Shown here: in pieces, positions 9,001 through 27,000 of the stretch
Numbering within the stretch: position 1 is the first letter of the stretch
Layout: the number at the start of each line of letters is the position of its first letter
Assembly: GCA_965202805.1 (NCBI GenBank)
Contig: OZ241869.1
Span: 2,496,001-2,560,000 of the forward strand
From: Longimicrobiales bacterium
GTDB lineage: Bacteria > Gemmatimonadota > Gemmatimonadetes > Longimicrobiales > Gaopeijiaceae
Length of the DNA stretch: 64,000 nucleotides
Direction of reading: 5' to 3'
Made by a program: the position numbers

Positions 9001-12000
9001 GGAAGTGGCGAAGAAGAACGGCGTAACGCCGGTCGATCAGCTCATCCAGTTCGCGCTCGACAGCGAGCCGTCCGTCCGCTCCGGAGTGCGCTTCCGTCCG
9101 CTGGCCGGAAGCCCCGAAGATGTCGAGCGCTACATGCGGCAGGACTTTACCGCGACCGGCACGGATGGTGGAATCGTGCCGAACCCGGGTCCGGGGCGGC
9201 ATCCACGGTACTACGGGACGTATCCACACAAGATCGCGACCTACGTCCGCGACAAGGGCACCATCACGCTGCCGTTCTTCGTCCGCTCCTCGACCGGCCT
9301 GCCCGCCCAGATCATCGGGCTCCCCGACCGCGGGTACATCCGCCCGGGACAGAAGGCCGACCTGGTCGCCTTCGATTATCCGCGGGTGCAGGACCACGCG
9401 ACGATCATCAATCCGGGCGGCGGCAACGAGGGCATCGAGTACGTGTTCGTGAACGGTGAGGCGGTGGTCGACGGAGGCGAGCTGACGGGAGCCCTCCCCG
9501 GCCGGGTGCTACGGCGGCACGAGGCGCGCGGGCGGTAGGCCCCTCAGGCCGTCCTGTCCAGCGGGTTCGCGGCGAAGGCGGCGCGCAGCTTCGGGTGCTT
9601 GCGCCACAGGTAGTAGCCCATCCCGCCCGCCGCCAGCACGTTCGCGAAGGCGATCGACGTCCAGGCCAGGGGACCGAGCAGGAACTCCGCCCCGATCGCG
9701 ATGAAGCCCATGAAGGCGGCCTCGAACCCCACGAAGAGCAGGACCGCACCGAGCAGCAGGGGCGGCGCCTCCTCCGCCTGGGTCAGGACCGCCGACGCGA
9801 CCACCCCCATCACCGCGAACGCGCCAAGGTGCAGGGCGGAGTAACCCACCACCGCCCCCATGTGGATCGAGACGGCGTCGAGGTCGGTGACCCCGAGGAA
9901 CAGGGCGGAGCCCAGCGCGCTCGGCGTGAACAAGGGCTGGCCCGAGACCACGTCGAAGATCAGGAACCAGACCGCCACTACGCCCGCGCCGATCAGACCC
10001 GAAACGATCCCCTCCATCAGGATGTGCTGGCGGCGCATGATCGACCACCAGTGCACCTCCGGCGTCGCGCCCATCATGTGCAGATAGCCCACCATGGTGA
10101 CCCCGGCGATCAGGTTGCCGGTCAGGTACTCCGGCCAGCCCAGGCTCTCGACGATGTCCACCCCGGTGACCGAGACGCTCGCGAAGAACACGAGTTCGTA
10201 CAGAATGAAGCCGACGATCAGCCCCGCGAGTATGTTGGGCACCGCCCTGATCCGGCCCAGAAGCCAGGCCACCGCCACCCCGGCCAGCGCGAAGAGCACC
10301 AGGTGAATCACCGAGTAGACCGCGATGTTGCCCGGAGCCACCGAGACCGTCTCCCGGCCCAGAATGGCGGCCTCCAGGAACGCCGGAGTGCGGAAGGGCT
10401 GGCCCCGCGAGGCATCGATGGCCAGGAACCACAGCGCCATCGCAACGGCGCCGAGCATCCCCGACAGGGCCCCGGGATAGAAAAACCGCTTCACGAACAT
10501 GGACCGCCTCCTTCAGTTGGGCCGGAGGGAACCGGCGTCCCCGAACGCGCGACATAGCCCATGGCTATCCGTGAGGTTGGGCCCGGACGCCCCGGTGCCG
10601 CAAGTGTGGCCAGGGCCGGGTGAGTCACTGGAACTGCAATTGTCGGCGCGCGGGATTGCGGGAGAGTCCACGAGCGAGAAAGCCCTGACCGCCGCATCGG
10701 GCACGGTCAGGGCTTTGCCCAGCTGTTGGAGAGAGGGCGGCCCGGCTCGCTTCGGCCGGCGGCCCCTGGCGGTCAGCCGATCAGAACTCCGTCAGCACGG
10801 CGATCACCAGGATCACCGCCAGCGGCAGCGGGCTCGCGGCCAGGATCCACAGCCGTTTGGGCTCGAACTTCAGGTGCATGTAGTAGAGCGCCACCAGCAG
10901 GGCCTTCCAGAGCGCCATGAGGATCAGACCCGTGGCGAGCAGCCACTGCGGGAGGGCGAGAAACGCGTACCCCACCTCGGCCATCGTCAGAACGAAAAGT
11001 ATGAACCAGATCAGGAAGTATCTGGGTTCTTGCCCGTTGCCTGCCATCCGGGTGTCTCCTTGGTTTCCAGGCGGCGGTCCGCCCCGATGATCAGATCAGG
11101 TAAACGATGGTGAACAGGATGATCCAGACCAGATCGACGAAGTGCCAGTAGAGACCCATGATCTCCACCGCCCCGTAGTTGTCCGCCGAGTACTTGCCCT
11201 GCCACGCGCGGTAGAGCACGAACCACATGCACAGAATCCCGATCGTGACGTGGGTGCCGTGGAATCCCGTCATCGTATAGAAGGTGGCTCCGTACAGGGC
11301 GGCTCCCTCGATCTCGTGCGCCACGCCGTACAGCTCCACCATGGGCACGAAGCCCTCCTGCGCCAGCAGGATGTACTCGACCACCTGAACCCCGACAAAG
11401 AAGGTGCCGAGCAGGATCGTCACCAGGAGCCAGAATCTGAGCCCCTTCTGATCGCCCTGCGTGATCGCGGCGTAGGCCTTGACCATCGACACGCTCGAGC
11501 AAATCAGCACGAACGTGTTGAAGGCCGTGAGCGGCACGTTCAGCACCGCACCGGGCTCGGCGAAATGATCCGGGTGGGCGAATCGCAGGATGATGTAGGA
11601 CCCGATCAGGGCCGTGAAGAACATCACTTCCGACAGCAGGAAGATCCACATTCCCAGCTTTACGTTGTAGACCATCATCCCGGGCATGGGATGCCGGTCG
11701 GCTGTCGATGCGGCTGGTTGGCTCATGCGTCAGCTATCTCCTGAAGTTCCAGATCACTGGAGGGAATGCGGTTCGGCCGGCGAAACGAAGACGGGCATCG
11801 GGTCTAGTCCGCTACCGGCTGGGGTTCGAGCGCGGGCGCAGCGGTCTCGCTGGGCGGCGGAGTATCCTGCAACCAGTAGTCCTCTTCCACGTCGGGCGCG
11901 GAGTACTCGTACGGCCCGCGGTAGACGATGGGCACCAGCTCGAAGTTTCCGTGCGGCGGCGGCGACGGCACCGTCCACTCCAGGGAGTTGGCCTTCCACG

Positions 12001-24000: not shown

Positions 24001-27000
24001 CGATACATGGCTGCCTCGATTGGGGGTGCTCGAGGGATCTGGCGCGTGTGGTTCAGCCATGCAACTCGCGAGCGGCGGACGCATGTCCGCCAAGGCAGGA
24101 AGAGAGCAGGAGGCAGTCCACTTGGTTCGGCAAGTCAGGCAGGGCCAAGTCCCCGAAGGCGGTCGCCGAAAGGTCGGCGTACATAACATAAGCGGGCACC
24201 CGGGCCCGCTCGTCAGATCTCATGTGTCGGCCCCTGCGGAGCCGGGCAAATTATACCGGAAATCGCCAATCGATGTCAAACGCCGCGGAGGGGCGCGGAG
24301 GCGCCCGCGCAAAGGCTCGGATCCACTCCGGGAAACCGCCCCGCCTCGAGTCAGAGATCCCATCCGGCGCGCGCCAGCATCCACAGGTTGATGACGATGA
24401 CGACGATGGCCGTGAGGTAGAACCCCGGGGGCAGCGCGGCGTCGGGTCCGGGCAGGAACGCGCCTTCGATCATGCTGGGCAGGCGCAGCGCATGCAGCGC
24501 CCAGATCCCCCGGGCGAGCCAGACGCTCCGCCGGAACCAGAGCCCCCAGAAGACGAGCGCCACGATGGCCGCCCCGAGCAGCAGCCAGAGCACGATGGGC
24601 CCGCGGATGGGGTTGACGAGCCCGTTGCGCCACATGGCGACCACGGCGGCCTCGTAGAGCAGCCCGACGTGCAGGTACCAGAAGGCGGCCTGCCGGAACT
24701 TGCGGGCGCGTGCGCCGGCGTTCTTCGGCGCGGGTCCCTGCTGCTGCCGCATCGTGGGAGCGGACACGGAATCGCGGGCGGCGTCCCGGCCTGACCCGGT
24801 CACATTTCCTCCAGTCCCAGGTCCGAGCGCGCCGTGTCCATGACCTCCGGGGTCATGCGGTCGATGCCTCGTTGGCGGGCGTAGTCGGTGTAGATGCGCT
24901 TCACCATGCCGCGCACGAAGGACGGCACCCGGCCCAGCCGATCCACCGCGGCCGGGGTCCACTCTACCCGGCCGGGGCGGGCGGGAGCGGGGGGCTCCTC
25001 CTCCACGAAGGCGTCCTGCCGTCCTCCCTCCAGGTTGCCCCGCACCAGTTCCATGGGCTGCTCGGGCACCGTCCGGCCTCCGATTTCGATGCCCATGCTG
25101 CTCACCAGCCGGGTCTCCATGGGGTTGGTGAGCATGGCGATGTCGAGCCCGCACGCCGAGCACTCGAACACCGCCGCCAGGGTGCCGTCCCCGGGCAGCT
25201 GGCGTTCCGCGAAGGCCATGATGTGATCGCACTGGATGCAGAGGAACTTCATCGGCCATCCTCCTTCCCCGTCCCCCCGAGGCCGGCAAGCCTCCCCGCC
25301 AGCGCCCGGAAGGCGCGCGCGCTCGGCGAGTCTTCTCCTGCGGCGACGACGGGAGTGCCGCGGTCGGAGGTCTCGCCCAGACGGGGGTCGAAGGGGATCC
25401 TGCCCCAGATCTCCAGACCGGTGGCGCCGGCCAGGCGCGCGACGCCGTCTCCGGGAAAGAGGGGATCCGAGTGGCCGCAACACGGGCAGACGTATTCGGT
25501 CATGTTCGCGACCAGCCCCACCGTCGGGATTCCCTGTTCACGCGCCAGGCGCGCCGCCCGGGCCACCACCCGGCGCGACATCTCGGACGGAGTCGTCACC
25601 AGAAGCAGCGTCGCGAGCCCGGGCAGGAGCTGGAAGACACGCTCCATCTTGTCGGTACCCGGCGGCAGGTCCAACAGAAGGAAGTCGAGCTCGCCCCACG
25701 CCACATCCGACAGAAACTCGCGCACGGCCCCGGTCTCCATCGAACTCTGCCACAGGAAGCCGTCACCGGAGGGCGCACGCCAGCGCAGGGGAGCGTCGGC
25801 GTCGTTCTGCAGCAGCTCCATCGACATCACCCGGACCCCGCACGCGGCCGGCGCCGGAACCACGCCCTCGGCCCCGTCCACCAGCCGTTCCCCGGACGCG
25901 CCCAGCATGCGGGCCAGCGACGGGCCGTTCAGGTCGGCGTCCAGCGCGCCCACCGAACACCCCTCTCCGGCGAGGGCGGCGGCCAGGTTTGCCGTCACCA
26001 GGCTCTTGCCCACTCCGCCCTTGCCGCTTCCGACCGCGACCAGGTTGCGAATCCCCGCCAGCCGGCCGTCGAGCCGCCGCCGCTGGCCCCTGATCTGATC
26101 CACGAGCAGGTCGCCCGTCTGCGACTCCACCTCGTGGTAGGTGCGGATCTTTCTCATGGGTCCCGGGGCCTGCGGAGCCGGTCAGGGCAGGAGTTGCGTG
26201 CCGTCGGAATCGAGCACGGAAATCGCGTCCACGGGACACTCGTCGCAGGCATCCAGCAGGGTTTGGCGGTCCACCTCGTCGATGCCCTCCCTGAACACGG
26301 CGATCCCCTCGTCATCCAACTCGAACGCGGCTTCCGCGGCCTCGATGCAGTCACCGAATCCCACGCAGAGGTTGCGGTCGATCCGGATCCGCAGGTCTCC
26401 GACCCGTCGCTCCTGAATGTCGCTCACCGGGATCCCGTTGCTGAGGTGAAGTCCTCGCCGGCGTCGACGTGGACGGGTGAACATCTCCACGCCCGCAAAG
26501 CCGGGCAAGGTTGAAGGCGTGCGGTATCGACAACTATTATCATCTTCTGCCTGCCCGCTTTTCGCGAAAGGCCCGGGACTCGCCCGGGACGGATCGGGCC
26601 GGCACGACGCTTCAATCCAGGGAGACCGTGGAACTCCTGGTATTCGGTACCAACCACAGGGTCGCCCCGGCCGCGGCCCGGGACCGTCTGGCGCTTTCCG
26701 GCGAGGAAACGCGCGAGCTGCTCGGAACGCTCGTCGACGGCGCGCACGGCGACCGCCTGATTCGCGAGAGCGTGGTCCTTTCGACCTGCACGCGGACCGA
26801 GGTCTTCGCCTGGACGCGGGAGCCGGTTCGGGCCATCGAGCTGGTGCGCCACAAACTGCGCGACGTCAAGGACAACGACGCCGTATCCACCGAACGTCAC
26901 ACCTTCTCGCTGAGCGGACGCGAGGGGGCTCATCATCTCTTCCGCGTGGCGGCCGGGCTCGACTCGCTCATGATCGGCGAGCCCCAGGTGCTGGGACAGG

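Follow-up and report, generated by a model that had tools for sequence, protein, structure and literature searches.

Results

A block of respiratory and accessory genes lies at positions 10781-26427 of the window, the whole 64,000-nucleotide stretch of DNA that was analyzed. Every gene named there by Pfam and NCBIfam scans is on the minus strand (Table 1), in line with the survey's finding of a co-directional 16-gene block.

Table 1. Genes and promoter of the block, in order of position in the window
Feature	Position	Strand	Basis
CoxD	10781-11047	-	COX4_pro (Pfam)
CoxC	11091-11726	-	COX3 (Pfam)
CoxA	11804-13564	-	COX1, 504 bits (Pfam)
CoxB	13565-14266	-	COX2 (Pfam); TIGR02866; CuA motif
Lipoprotein candidate, 309 aa	14381-15310	-	type-1 copper motif, lipobox-like sequence
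Dihaem cytochrome c-EB_dh fusion, C-terminal membrane helix	15294-16964	-	Pfam
Monohaem cytochrome c, three N-terminal membrane helices	16964-17767	-	Cytochrome_CBB3 (Pfam)
Dihaem c-type cytochrome	17796-18605	-	Cytochrom_C, two stretches (Pfam)
CydA-like (bd-like) protein	18615-20462	-	Cyt_bd_oxida_I (Pfam)
Radical SAM/SPASM/PCP_red protein, 482 aa	20440-21888	-	Pfam
Usp-Usp-PCP_red protein, 706 aa	21888-24008	-	Pfam
Consensus sigma-70-type promoter	24250-24279	-	12/12 matches
Small membrane protein	24351-24803	-	hydrophobic segments; no Pfam match
4-Cys ribbon + PCP_red protein, 150 aa	24800-25252	-	PCP_red (Pfam)
Mrp/ParA ATPase	25249-26157	-	ParA/NUBPL (Pfam)
Ferredoxin	26182-26427	-	Fer4_15, Fer4_13 (Pfam)

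Conservation was counted by tblastn of 20 window proteins against 80 loci retrieved with the radical SAM protein as query, 43 of which have full flanks and serve as the base for all counts out of 43. Thirteen block proteins were each found in 41 to 43 of these loci, gene order and strand were kept in 41, and the bd-like subunit was the best conserved (median identity, 78%); this independent search reproduced the earlier conservation counts. Some labels that name other phyla are wrong: records named "Gammaproteobacteria" share 94 to 95% identity with the window. With start codons picked by our own rule, the junction of the Mrp and ribbon-PCP_red genes is overlapping in 54 of 57 loci (in 53 of the 57, the Mrp stop overlaps the ribbon-PCP_red start by 4 nt), and the Usp-PCP_red/radical SAM and radical SAM/bd-like junctions overlap or span at most 30 nt in 50 of 65 and 49 of 58 loci, respectively. 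The genes hemA and hemB and an HmuY-like gene adjoin the block divergently, an arrangement confined to loci of the same genus. Our literature search found no paper that describes a module of a bd-like subunit and a PCP_red cassette.

Gene content and order support the earlier description of a single block, but the consensus promoter (TTGACA-18-TATAAT) divides it into at least two transcription units. Only one other promoter-like site exists within positions 9300-27000, and the leader downstream of this one measures about 240 nt. In 51 of 68 loci, the 400 nt that precede the Usp-PCP_red gene contain a site with 10 or more of the 12 matches. The leader sequence upstream of this gene is not conserved across loci and gave no match in Rfam. 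A gene placed here by the survey (g02017) found no support, the stretch being taken up by promoter and leader. The adjacent small membrane protein (about 133 to 150 aa, with two strong hydrophobic segments) was detected by tblastn in 18 of the 43 full-flank loci, and an ABC-2 transporter occupies its place in other lineages of the Gemmatimonadota; the position is a variable slot of the cassette.

The ferredoxin (81 aa from a GTG start, with other possible starts at 26484 and 26508) is of the single-cluster type (Fer4_15, 1.7e-10; Fer4_13, 9.5e-10) and occurs in 41 of 43 full-flank loci; its gene precedes that of Mrp in 44 loci and follows the ribbon-PCP_red gene in 9. The Mrp/NBP35-type P-loop ATPase, present in all 43 (ParA/NUBPL, 231 bits), has a Walker A motif (GKGGVGKS) and a CPCCG motif, scores under the cut-offs of the NCBIfam models MrpORP (221 bits) and ApbC (165 bits), and is a candidate Fe-S cluster carrier. 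In this genome, PCP_red is restricted to three cassette proteins. The first (49 bits) carries an N-terminal, zinc- or rubredoxin-like ribbon whose C5, C8, C31, and C34 show no variation among 30 sequences, and its C terminus aligns to ChlB (2xdq_B, 3.4e-6) and to the stand-alone structures 2kru and 2l09. The second combines tandem Usp domains (99.6 bits) with PCP_red in two stretches and a Cys-bearing C-terminal region; C227, C551, C669, and C681 are conserved at 99%, three of them as Cys-Pro dipeptides (66 of 67 orthologues). Its AF2 model (pLDDT 70) is confident for both Usp domains and not for residues 660-689, and the four cysteines could be ligands of a metal ion or Fe-S cluster and not bind haem.

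The third PCP_red protein is the radical SAM enzyme, in which Pfam recognizes Radical_SAM, SPASM, and a C-terminal PCP_red domain. Its best NCBIfam scores are those for AhbD (271.9 bits) and NirJ2 (271.4 bits), against cut-offs of 500, followed by TIGR04053 (243.6), NirJ (179), NirJ1 (156), and AhbC (149); models of peptide maturases gave at most 151 bits. C55, C59, and C62 are invariant together with nine more cysteines. Among solved structures, PqqE and SkfB are the closest, the same pair that the survey had named. Second paralogues in cassette genomes exceed the TIGR04053 cut-off. Judged by sequence, the enzyme is a distinct subfamily of the AhbD/NirJ clade.

The bd-like subunit (596 to 615 aa, depending on the start chosen) is a CydA homologue of the OR-N kind and the sole bd-family gene product of the genome (Cyt_bd_oxida_I, 77 bits). 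Residues 57-189 align to CydA (5doq_A), and all of the top 10 Foldseek matches of its AF2 model are CydA. In this model, 13 membrane helices are joined by an additional helix at the N terminus, a count that replaces the earlier estimate of about 10. Residues H73, H183, H241, H273, H393, H542, and E160 are invariant in 33 sequences, and a search of the subunit for CxxCH agreed with the reported absence of this motif. The neighboring dihaem cytochrome (two CTACH motifs, N-terminal anchor or signal) and monohaem cytochrome (CMACH, three hydrophobic segments) each occur in 42 of 43 full-flank loci. The EB_dh-fused cytochrome has cytochrome c in two stretches (CASCH and CNRCH), an EB_dh match of 58.8 bits, and a membrane segment at residues 518-536; against the model of the DMSO reductase type II haem b subunit it scored 85 bits, under the cut-off. 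The putative lipoprotein (41 of 43 full-flank loci) does have a lipobox-like AIAC, to which we add a cupredoxin-like type-1 (blue) copper motif, CDVHGWM, with a weak Copper-bind match (E = 0.0098) and a match to CarboxypepD_reg. CoxB exceeds the TIGR02866 cut-off (157.7 versus 147.7 bits) and has the CuA motif CAELCGNLHTTM; CoxD was found in 38 of 43 full-flank loci.

Co-occurrence was analyzed in 151 genomes of the Gemmatimonadota and 201 of a second phylum (that of G152, labelled Acidobacteriota). Orthologues of the radical SAM enzyme (at least 58% identity, PCP_red covered) are present in 40 of the 151, and the bd-like orthologue (72% identity or more) occurs in exactly these 40; the two genes share contig and strand in every case and, by match coordinates, are no more than about 260 bases apart. 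In the second phylum, 14 of 201 genomes have a bd-like gene (53 to 59% identity), and all 14 have the cassette. Hence, the cassette accompanies the bd-like gene in 54 of 54 genomes, a count that overstates independence because genomes within a phylum are kin, and clustered genes may co-occur through block inheritance or transfer. PCP_red was found in 45 of the 151 genomes: the 40 cassette genomes, G052, in which a contig end interrupts the cassette, and four others with long BchB-like reading frames plus HemF. In the second phylum, the 187 genomes that remain include one with BchB-like frames and two with one PCP_red frame each. The gene order there is bd-like, cytochromes, Usp-PCP_red, GNAT, Mrp, ribbon-PCP_red, and radical SAM, with the cassette 6.6 to 25 kb downstream of the bd-like module, once on the opposite strand; in the Gemmatimonadota the cassette lies upstream. 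In the second phylum, the locus has no Cox genes, or these are located elsewhere, on the opposite strand. Thus, of the proposed link to bd-like or Cox genes outside the phylum, the former holds and the latter does not, and the aa3 oxidase, whose linkage is seen in Gemmatimonadota only, drops out of the conserved unit, which consists of the bd-like oxidase, three cytochromes, and the PCP_red cassette. The tie between cassette and bd-like gene is very tight, in two phyla and in differing gene orders.

As for the haem pathway, ChdC is present in 35 of the 40 Gemmatimonadota cassette genomes versus 25 of the 111 others, HemF in none of the 40, and five of the 40 have neither. In three of these five (G075, G092, and G134), the cassette enzyme is the sole AhbD-like match (E ≤ 1e-20) and may be the general coprohaem decarboxylase. 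From the second phylum, five cassette genomes without ChdC were examined; HemF is present in four of them and HemN above its cut-off in three, and AhbC above its cut-off in none of the five. By these markers, their pathway runs without a coprohaem intermediate. In 10 genomes, ChdC is located about 8.8 kb beyond the bd-like gene, and four loci (L011, L016, L026, and L028) have it upstream of the cassette.

Discussion

In sum, our data point toward a unit of two halves, a periplasm-facing respiratory module and a cytoplasmic accessory cassette that would be dedicated to it. The respiratory module would combine the OR-N-type bd-like subunit (about 14 membrane helices) with three c-type cytochromes anchored in the membrane, one of them bearing the haem b domain EB_dh, and would reduce O2 with electrons from cytochrome c, not quinol. 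We propose, with a probability of roughly 0.48, that the cassette is a dedicated system for maturation of a tetrapyrrole and its hand-off to the bd-like oxidase. In this model, the ferredoxin would donate the electron that cleaves SAM, the Mrp-type ATPase may deliver three Fe-S clusters to the radical SAM enzyme, and the latter would carry out radical chemistry of the propionate type on an iron-containing tetrapyrrole, coprohaem or a closely related haem, held beneath its C-terminal PCP_red domain. The ribbon-PCP_red protein and the nucleotide-binding Usp-Usp-PCP_red protein, which share this domain, may then receive the product and escort it to the nascent bd-like complex. The data themselves establish which genes are present, their domain homologies, the conservation of Cys and His residues, the strict co-occurrence, and the tight or overlapping junctions; what the substrate is, how it reacts, how the product is handed over, and whether this product is haem b itself or a variant of it are inferences. 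We take the survey to propose that the cassette makes or matures a haem-type cofactor for the oxidases next to it; the tie to the bd-like gene, the affinity to tetrapyrrole enzymes, and the homology of PCP_red support this for the bd-like oxidase, but not for aa3.

An alternative that we regard as improbable but serious takes the radical SAM enzyme for a conventional O2-independent coprohaem decarboxylase: an isozyme of AhbD, extended by one domain, that would supply bulk haem b whenever ChdC is short of O2 or H2O2, its low-oxygen respiratory neighbors simply being required under the same conditions. AhbD is indeed the top NCBIfam match, and the distribution of ChdC and HemF, including the five genomes with neither, would fit. 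Furthermore, a review describes AhbD together with the coproporphyrin-dependent pathway in organisms without other AHB enzymes and considers it a possible anaerobic replacement of ChdC (PMC13564367). ChdC, hemA, or hemB lies close to the block in several lineages, and with ChdC nearby and hemA and hemB adjoining, general haem supply fits equally well as a dedicated role. However, the 272 bits on the AhbD model compare with 442 to 454 bits for stand-alone genes of the same phylum, and a general haem enzyme should be spread more widely, yet no sampled genome without a bd-like gene has it, apart from G052, where a contig end interrupts the cassette. The cassette occurs with ChdC or, in the second phylum, with HemF and/or HemN instead, which argues against a plain anaerobic substitute for ChdC. 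The three PCP_red proteins, the Usp protein, and the overlapping junction with the bd-like gene would also be left unexplained.

It is imaginable that the substrate of the radical SAM/SPASM enzyme is not a tetrapyrrole but a protein or peptide, altered for example by a cross-link or side-chain change in the bd-like subunit or a cytochrome before export, with PCP_red as a protein-docking domain common to the helpers. The majority of characterized SPASM enzymes act on peptides or proteins, PqqE and SkfB are the nearest solved structures, the full SPASM Cys set is conserved, and a strict tie to one membrane protein would suit a dedicated maturase. Nevertheless, we consider this rather implausible: the top six NCBIfam models (149 to 272 bits) are five tetrapyrrole enzymes and the uncharacterized TIGR04053, with peptide maturases at 151 bits or less; a small precursor gene is not conserved, the sole small frame of the cassette being that of the variable slot; and the other known setting of PCP_red is a tetrapyrrole enzyme. 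About equally doubtful is a cytoplasmic assembly that senses nucleotides and haem and regulates how the bd-like complex is assembled or how active it is, its radical SAM enzyme being minor or noncatalytic like HemW, a haem chaperone. The Gly-rich loops conserved in the tandem Usp domains, the Cys-Pro dipeptides, and the overlapping junctions with the structural gene are compatible with such a role, but the catalytic CxxxCxxC and all SPASM cysteines are invariant, the Fe-S carrier and ferredoxin are kept in nearly all loci, as suits an active enzyme, and the Cys-Pro region is of low confidence in the model and may be a metal site. Finally, linkage without functional meaning, in a mobile respiratory island inherited or transferred as a block, would agree with the patchy occurrence within families (5 of 15 genomes in family f1) and with the 63 to 68% identity of the radical SAM protein between the window and some Acidobacteriota-labelled MAGs (43 to 48% in 11 other sampled genomes of that phylum), which does point to block transfer instead of long independent retention, but this explanation is very improbable, since cassette and bd-like module stay together despite rearrangement while Cox and other neighbors are lost or replaced.

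The characterized families closest to the cassette enzyme all act on tetrapyrroles. The stand-alone AhbD-like genes of the same phylum differ from the cassette enzyme not only in their much higher scores on the AhbD model but also in being without PCP_red. This domain is, by homology, related to the C-terminal domain of BchB/ChlB, which in the protochlorophyllide reductase (DPOR) covers the tetrapyrrole as a lid.

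Gene content and transcription

The conserved block is a real feature of these genomes, and its best-supported reading, judged from sequence, is that a tetrapyrrole-directed cassette (a ferredoxin, an Mrp-type ATPase, and three PCP_red proteins, one of them a radical SAM enzyme) would serve the adjoining bd-like oxidase. This core of the survey's finding stands, its chemistry being presumed; its wider claim of a 16-gene supercluster (g02006 to g02021) that includes the aa3 oxidase holds in Gemmatimonadota only, because Cox genes are absent or displaced in a second phylum.

Since the window has about 69% G+C, genes were picked by codon-position G+C and then checked with Pfam and NCBIfam. 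All genes that had been named were recovered on the minus strand (see the table). In order of transcription they encode the ferredoxin, an Mrp/NBP35-type ATPase, the ribbon-PCP_red protein, a small membrane protein, the Usp-PCP_red protein, the radical SAM enzyme, the CydA-like (bd-like) subunit, three c-type cytochromes with five CxxCH motifs in total (one fused to an EB_dh heme b domain), a lipoprotein candidate, and CoxBACD.

Coordinates of the block, its surroundings, and related features. L060, L081, and L085 are loci of the second phylum; G060, G085, and G126 are Gemmatimonadota genomes, given with contig.
Feature	Sequence	Position	Strand	Remark
Conserved block	window	10781-26427	-	
Single-cluster ferredoxin	window		-	first gene of the block in transcription order
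Small membrane protein	window		-	between the ribbon-PCP_red and Usp-PCP_red genes
Perfect consensus promoter	window	24279-24250	-	
G+C-rich hairpin	window	24190-24211	-	leader of the Usp-PCP_red operon
bd-like subunit	window	18615-20462	-	
Three c-type cytochromes	window	15294-18605	-	
Lipoprotein candidate	window	14381-15310	-	
318-aa protein	window	9544-10500	-	directly downstream of coxD
DUF6152 protein and two adjacent DUF6644 membrane proteins	window	2671-4323		unrelated to the block
hemA (glutamyl-tRNA reductase), hemB (ALA dehydratase), HmuY-like heme-binding protein	window	26511-29665	+	divergent from the ferredoxin end
GNAT-family acetyltransferase	L060	7418-8599		between the Usp-PCP_red and Mrp genes
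GNAT-family acetyltransferase	L081	7880-8722		between the Usp-PCP_red and Mrp genes
GNAT-family acetyltransferase	L085	5570-6499		between the Usp-PCP_red and Mrp genes
Zeta-toxin-like/ParD-like pair	L060	11800-12815	-	directly after the radical SAM gene
Second bd-like paralogue	G060:C8	63895-65724		
Second bd-like paralogue	G085:C93	173-2101		
Second bd-like paralogue	G126:C1	2114085-2115983		

A perfect promoter (TTGACA-18-TATAAT) lies in the stretch where the survey had placed g02017, and in 51 of 68 loci a promoter matching at least 10 of 12 consensus positions precedes the Usp-PCP_red gene by no more than 400 nt. This conserved promoter divides the block into two units, one with the ferredoxin, Mrp, and ribbon-PCP_red genes and a long operon that opens with the Usp-PCP_red gene. 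With start codons of our own choice, the Mrp and ribbon-PCP_red genes overlap in 54 of 57 loci, and the junctions from Usp-PCP_red to radical SAM (50 of 65 loci) and from radical SAM to the bd-like gene (49 of 58) are overlaps or gaps of at most 30 nt.

A hairpin without a clear U-run follows the consensus promoter after about 40 nt; the leader sequence around it is not conserved across loci. Conservation among 38 aligned leaders was confined to the promoter and the ribosome-binding region, and a conserved leader RNA was therefore rejected; an Rfam scan of window positions 9000 to 30000 (E ≤ 0.1) gave no match. The 318-aa protein at the far end has seven predicted membrane segments, is present in only 4 of the 43 loci with full flanks, and has no match in Pfam or NCBIfam.

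Extent of the conserved unit

Eighty loci were fetched with the radical SAM protein and searched by tblastn with 20 proteins of the window; 43 of them have full flanks. This independent search reproduced the survey's presence counts, and gene order and strand are kept in 41 of the 43 loci. Mrp and the radical SAM protein are present in all 43, the bd-like subunit, the Usp-PCP_red and ribbon-PCP_red proteins, the three cytochromes, and CoxB, CoxA, and CoxC in 42, the ferredoxin and the lipoprotein candidate in 41, CoxD in 38, and the small membrane protein in 18, an ABC-2 transporter taking its place in other lineages. The hemA and hemB genes were rejected as members of the unit: they occur in 9 of the 43 loci, all of the same genus, and their adjacency is thus incidental.

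All of the 120 matches listed in the search for radical SAM homologues are at least 67% identical to the query. Three loci from records named "Gammaproteobacteria bacterium" (L001, L008, and L009) carry the block in the same gene order and at 94 to 95% protein identity to the window; these labels are almost certainly wrong, and record labels were rejected as proof of a spread across phyla. Since most labels that assign one of the 80 loci to another phylum cannot be trusted, we used instead the phylum grouping around genome G152, whose record title reads Acidobacteriota.

In Gemmatimonadota, an orthologue of the radical SAM protein is present in 40 of 151 genomes, and the bd-like orthologue is present in exactly the same 40, always adjoining. 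A family search for PCP_red returned 45 genomes, namely, these 40, one (G052) in which the cassette lies at a contig end so that the place of the bd-like gene falls off the contig, and four with long BchB-like frames, which also have HemF. In the second phylum, the bd-like gene (53 to 59% identity) was found in 14 of 201 genomes. Protein search, with the best eight candidates per genome scored, detected the radical SAM/PCP_red gene (43 to 61% identity) in 13 of the 14, and the PCP_red family search found it in the fourteenth, G333. PCP_red occurs in 17 of the 201 genomes: these 14, another that has BchB-like frames, and two more in which the domain is limited to one reading frame. Hence, the cassette is present in all 54 genomes of both samples that carry the bd-like gene. 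Four unpublished genomes are among those counted: G057 and G096 in the first sample, and G204, the source of L081, and G307 in the second.

Genes of the second phylum are arranged in the order bd-like subunit, short cytochrome c, two other cytochromes, Usp-PCP_red, a GNAT acetyltransferase (sometimes with further genes), Mrp, ribbon-PCP_red, and radical SAM, and Cox genes are missing from these loci or lie apart from the block in opposite orientation. What is conserved is therefore the bd-like module together with the PCP_red cassette; the aa3 oxidase was rejected as a member outside Gemmatimonadota, and its linkage is a feature of that phylum. The co-occurrence counts are not independent events, given the kinship of genomes of one phylum and the linkage of the genes. 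A stronger argument is that the linkage persists in the second phylum although it has been rearranged.

Some loci deviate in detail. An MFS transporter and an amidohydrolase are also inserted between the Usp-PCP_red and Mrp genes of L085, and in L060, from an Acidobacteriota-labelled MAG, the toxin-like pair occupies the place that the bd-like gene has in Gemmatimonadota loci. Three Gemmatimonadota genomes (G060, G085, and G126) have a second bd-like paralogue (51 to 53% identity) elsewhere. A second cassette-type radical SAM match of more than 50% identity is absent from all three, the second match in G085 reaching only 34%, and the paralogue may share the one cassette.

The two oxidases

The bd-like gene is the only bd-family gene that a scan of the 4.02-Mb single-contig genome detected. 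The protein aligns by sequence to Geobacillus CydA only over residues 57 to 189 (5doq_A, 2e-10) and retains the His of VHLLFA and the Glu of FFFE. In a longer alignment, with 9r2g_A, a His (NIHRL) falls at the equivalent of His186. Invariant residues in 33 sequences of the two phyla are His 73, 183, 241, 273, 393, and 542 and Glu160, His73 being the equivalent of His19. Six invariant His exceed the need of the three hemes of a classical bd oxidase and could, on this sequence evidence, point to an extra heme or metal site. The alignment to CydA fails after helix 4 to 5, which suggests that the quinol-binding Q-loop is absent. An AF2 model (pLDDT 73) contains 13 long helices and one more at the N terminus, and its ten best Foldseek matches are all CydA chains.

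The accessible text of a preprint by Murali, Gennis, and Hemp (10.1101/2021.01.16.426971) gives about 14 membrane helices for OR-N1/N2 versus 10 for OR-N3-5, and describes the lack of a second CydA-like gene as common for OR-N2; in its main text, as far as accessible, the strings "radical SAM" and "Gemmatimon" do not occur. By CydA homology and helix count, as distinct from the authors' subfamily HMMs, the subunit fits the 14-helix OR-N1/N2 group.

The second oxidase of the block has subunits I to IV, with matches to COX1 (504 bits), COX2, COX3, and COX4_pro in Pfam, a CoxB match over the cut-off of TIGR02866, and 633 bits on the CtaD model, just under the cut-off of 670.75. Its CoxB contains the CuA motif CAELCGNLHTTM, so that this A-type (aa3) enzyme oxidizes cytochrome c or a cupredoxin. 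The lipoprotein candidate has a type-1 copper-like motif, CDVHGWM (C-x2-H-x2-M), a weak plastocyanin/azurin match, and a CarboxypepD_reg-like domain. On the strength of the motif and the match, it may be a blue-copper carrier that passes electrons from the cytochromes to the aa3 oxidase.

The PCP_red cassette

PCP_red (PF08369) is confined to the three cluster proteins in the whole genome, which has no BchB. The domain scores 55.4, 47.6, and 49.0 bits in the window proteins and 59.3, 52.9, and 39.1 bits in the genome scan, against a gathering cut-off of 32.5. The 150-aa ribbon-PCP_red protein has four invariant Cys in its ribbon and a C-terminal PCP_red domain; its homologues in L050, L060, and L062 (Acidobacteriota-labelled loci) have an extra CPFSG motif. 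The 706-aa Usp-PCP_red protein combines tandem Usp with two PCP_red domains and has four Cys that are 99% conserved in 67 orthologues, three of them as Cys-Pro. They could act as heme-regulatory-type motifs or coordinate a metal ion or an Fe-S cluster; the two Usp domains are confident in an AF2 model (pLDDT 70), but residues 660 to 689 fall below pLDDT 50, and thus the model cannot tell whether the four Cys converge. The Mrp/NBP35-type ATPase has a deviant Walker A motif (GKGGVGKS), the cluster-bridging CxxC motif (CPCCG), and a Pfam ParA/NUBPL score of 231 bits, and falls below the cut-offs of the equivalog models MrpORP and ApbC. A protein-atlas search returned, as a lead only, a Nitrospirota cluster that combines PCP_red with a rubredoxin-type domain (score 0.80).

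The 482-aa radical SAM enzyme matches Radical_SAM and SPASM in Pfam. Its C55, C59, and C62 (CxxxCxxC) and nine further Cys are invariant in 30 sequences, and the sequence provides Cys for two auxiliary [4Fe-4S] clusters in the SPASM domain. NCBIfam scores, used here as a proxy for a tree, were 271.9 bits for AhbD (TIGR04545), 271.4 for NirJ2 (TIGR04055), and 243.6 for TIGR04053, followed by NirJ, NirJ1, and AhbC, all below their cut-offs (500 bits for the AhbD equivalog). Three stand-alone AhbD-like genes of the same phylum, without PCP_red, score 442 to 454 bits on the AhbD model; they come from a class in which ChdC and HemF were each found in none of 13 genomes. Three second paralogues from cassette genomes exceed the cut-off of TIGR04053. 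Hence, the cassette enzyme forms a separate subfamily, which by these scores would be about as distant from AhbD as TIGR04053 is. The solved structures nearest to it are PqqE and SkfB, as the survey had reported. A complex prediction for the radical SAM and ribbon-PCP_red proteins gave a score of 0.00 in two runs (30-row alignments each, without controls), which counts neither for nor against a contact.

What the cassette may make

A serious rival is that the cassette enzyme is an anaerobic substitute for ChdC. According to the review PMC13564367, AhbD is found where heme is made by the coproporphyrin-dependent pathway and may take over from ChdC under anaerobic conditions. Gemmatimonadota are consistent with such a role. 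The window genome has ChdC, about 1 Mb from the block, and no HemF; ChdC is present in 35 of the 40 cassette genomes versus 25 of the other 111, and none of the 20 genomes with HemF has the cassette. Five cassette genomes are without ChdC and HemF matches, two of them with marginal HemN_C matches. Furthermore, four loci (L011, L016, L026, and L028) have ChdC upstream of the cassette, and 10 genomes (G062, G073, G046, G100, G007, G041, G034, G054, G068, and G035) have it on the strand of the bd-like gene, about 8.8 kb further on and immediately behind the Cox genes. Of the 14 cassette genomes of the second phylum, however, only 5 have strong ChdC matches. Among five of the seven cassette genomes there without a ChdC match, four have HemF and three have HemN over the cut-off, each having at least one of the two, and AhbC exceeds the cut-off in none, the best match of the AhbC model being the cassette enzyme itself. 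By these markers, heme is made via protoporphyrin without a coproheme intermediate in these genomes, and the cassette and the bd-like gene are kept nonetheless. The cassette thus appears to track the oxidase, not the type of heme pathway. A RiPP-type peptide maturase is unlikely, as the cassette lacks a conserved gene for a small precursor peptide (its one small reading frame occurs in 18 of the 43 full loci) and peptide maturase models score at most 151 bits versus 272 for AhbD.

With a tetrapyrrole-directed cassette for the bd-like oxidase as the preferred reading, the propionate side chains of an iron tetrapyrrole are the likely site of chemistry, as for AhbD. To our knowledge, no enzyme has been described that makes the heme d of classical bd oxidases. 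We also consider a more far-reaching model, in which the cassette makes a heme other than heme b: the AhbD-like enzyme, with PCP_red as a lid, would reshape the propionates of coproheme or heme to yield the cofactor at which OR-N-type oxidases reduce O2, supplied by a dedicated O2-independent biosynthesis, and PCP_red would be a portable tetrapyrrole hand-off domain far outside chlorophyll synthesis. Taken as a whole, this model is unlikely, with a probability of roughly one in five.

OR-N (bd-like) oxidases presumably serve as terminal oxidases in nitrite oxidizers and in many uncultured soil and marine bacteria. For Nitrospirales, the accessible part of a 2025 paper (PMC12342949) states that the oxygen affinity of the bd-like oxidase "still remains unknown." A cassette that accompanies the oxidase in every genome examined offers a concrete handle on the cofactors, oxygen affinity, and assembly of OR-N enzymes. 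An unusual heme, if true, would open a new branch of tetrapyrrole biosynthesis and a general role for the PCP_red domain; if the product is only heme b, the cassette would still be the first example of a heme synthase dedicated to one respiratory complex. Our searches of the literature on PCP_red, bd-like oxidases with radical SAM, AhbD with cytochrome bd, and Gemmatimonadota with bd-like oxidases returned no published description of the module.

Comparison with known systems

The subunit resembles the OR-N family (the NIDE0901-like "bd-like oxidase" of Nitrospira) in that it is homologous to CydA in its first four helices only, keeps the His19 equivalent, and has no heme c motif (CxxCH), about 14 helices in the model, alternative electron donors in the operon, and no second CydA-like gene. 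It has a Tyr where Geobacillus CydA has Glu101, and six of its His are invariant.

In DPOR structures, the PCP_red domain of BchB covers the bound tetrapyrrole. The window domains are homologous over about 50 residues to the C-terminal domain of ChlB/BchB (2xdq_B, 3.4e-6) and to the stand-alone domains 2KRU (2kru_A, 2.9e-5) and 2L09 (2l09_A, 3.3e-4), but are fused to a radical SAM enzyme, tandem Usp domains, and a four-Cys ribbon.

With AhbD, the best family match, the cassette enzyme shares the radical SAM core and a complete SPASM domain whose Cys suffice for two auxiliary clusters. It differs in its C-terminal PCP_red domain, in its constant company of two more PCP_red proteins, an Mrp ATPase, and a bd-like oxidase, and in its occurrence also in genomes whose heme pathway, by its markers, uses HemF/HemN. 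NirJ and AhbC, of heme d1 and siroheme-dependent heme synthesis, belong to the same clade of tetrapyrrole-modifying radical SAM/SPASM enzymes, but their models score lower (NirJ, 179 bits; NirJ1, 156 bits; AhbC, 149 bits). HemW, a HemN relative outside the AhbD/NirJ clade, is a radical SAM-fold protein that binds heme and passes it to a respiratory membrane enzyme, and serves as our working analogy for the cassette.
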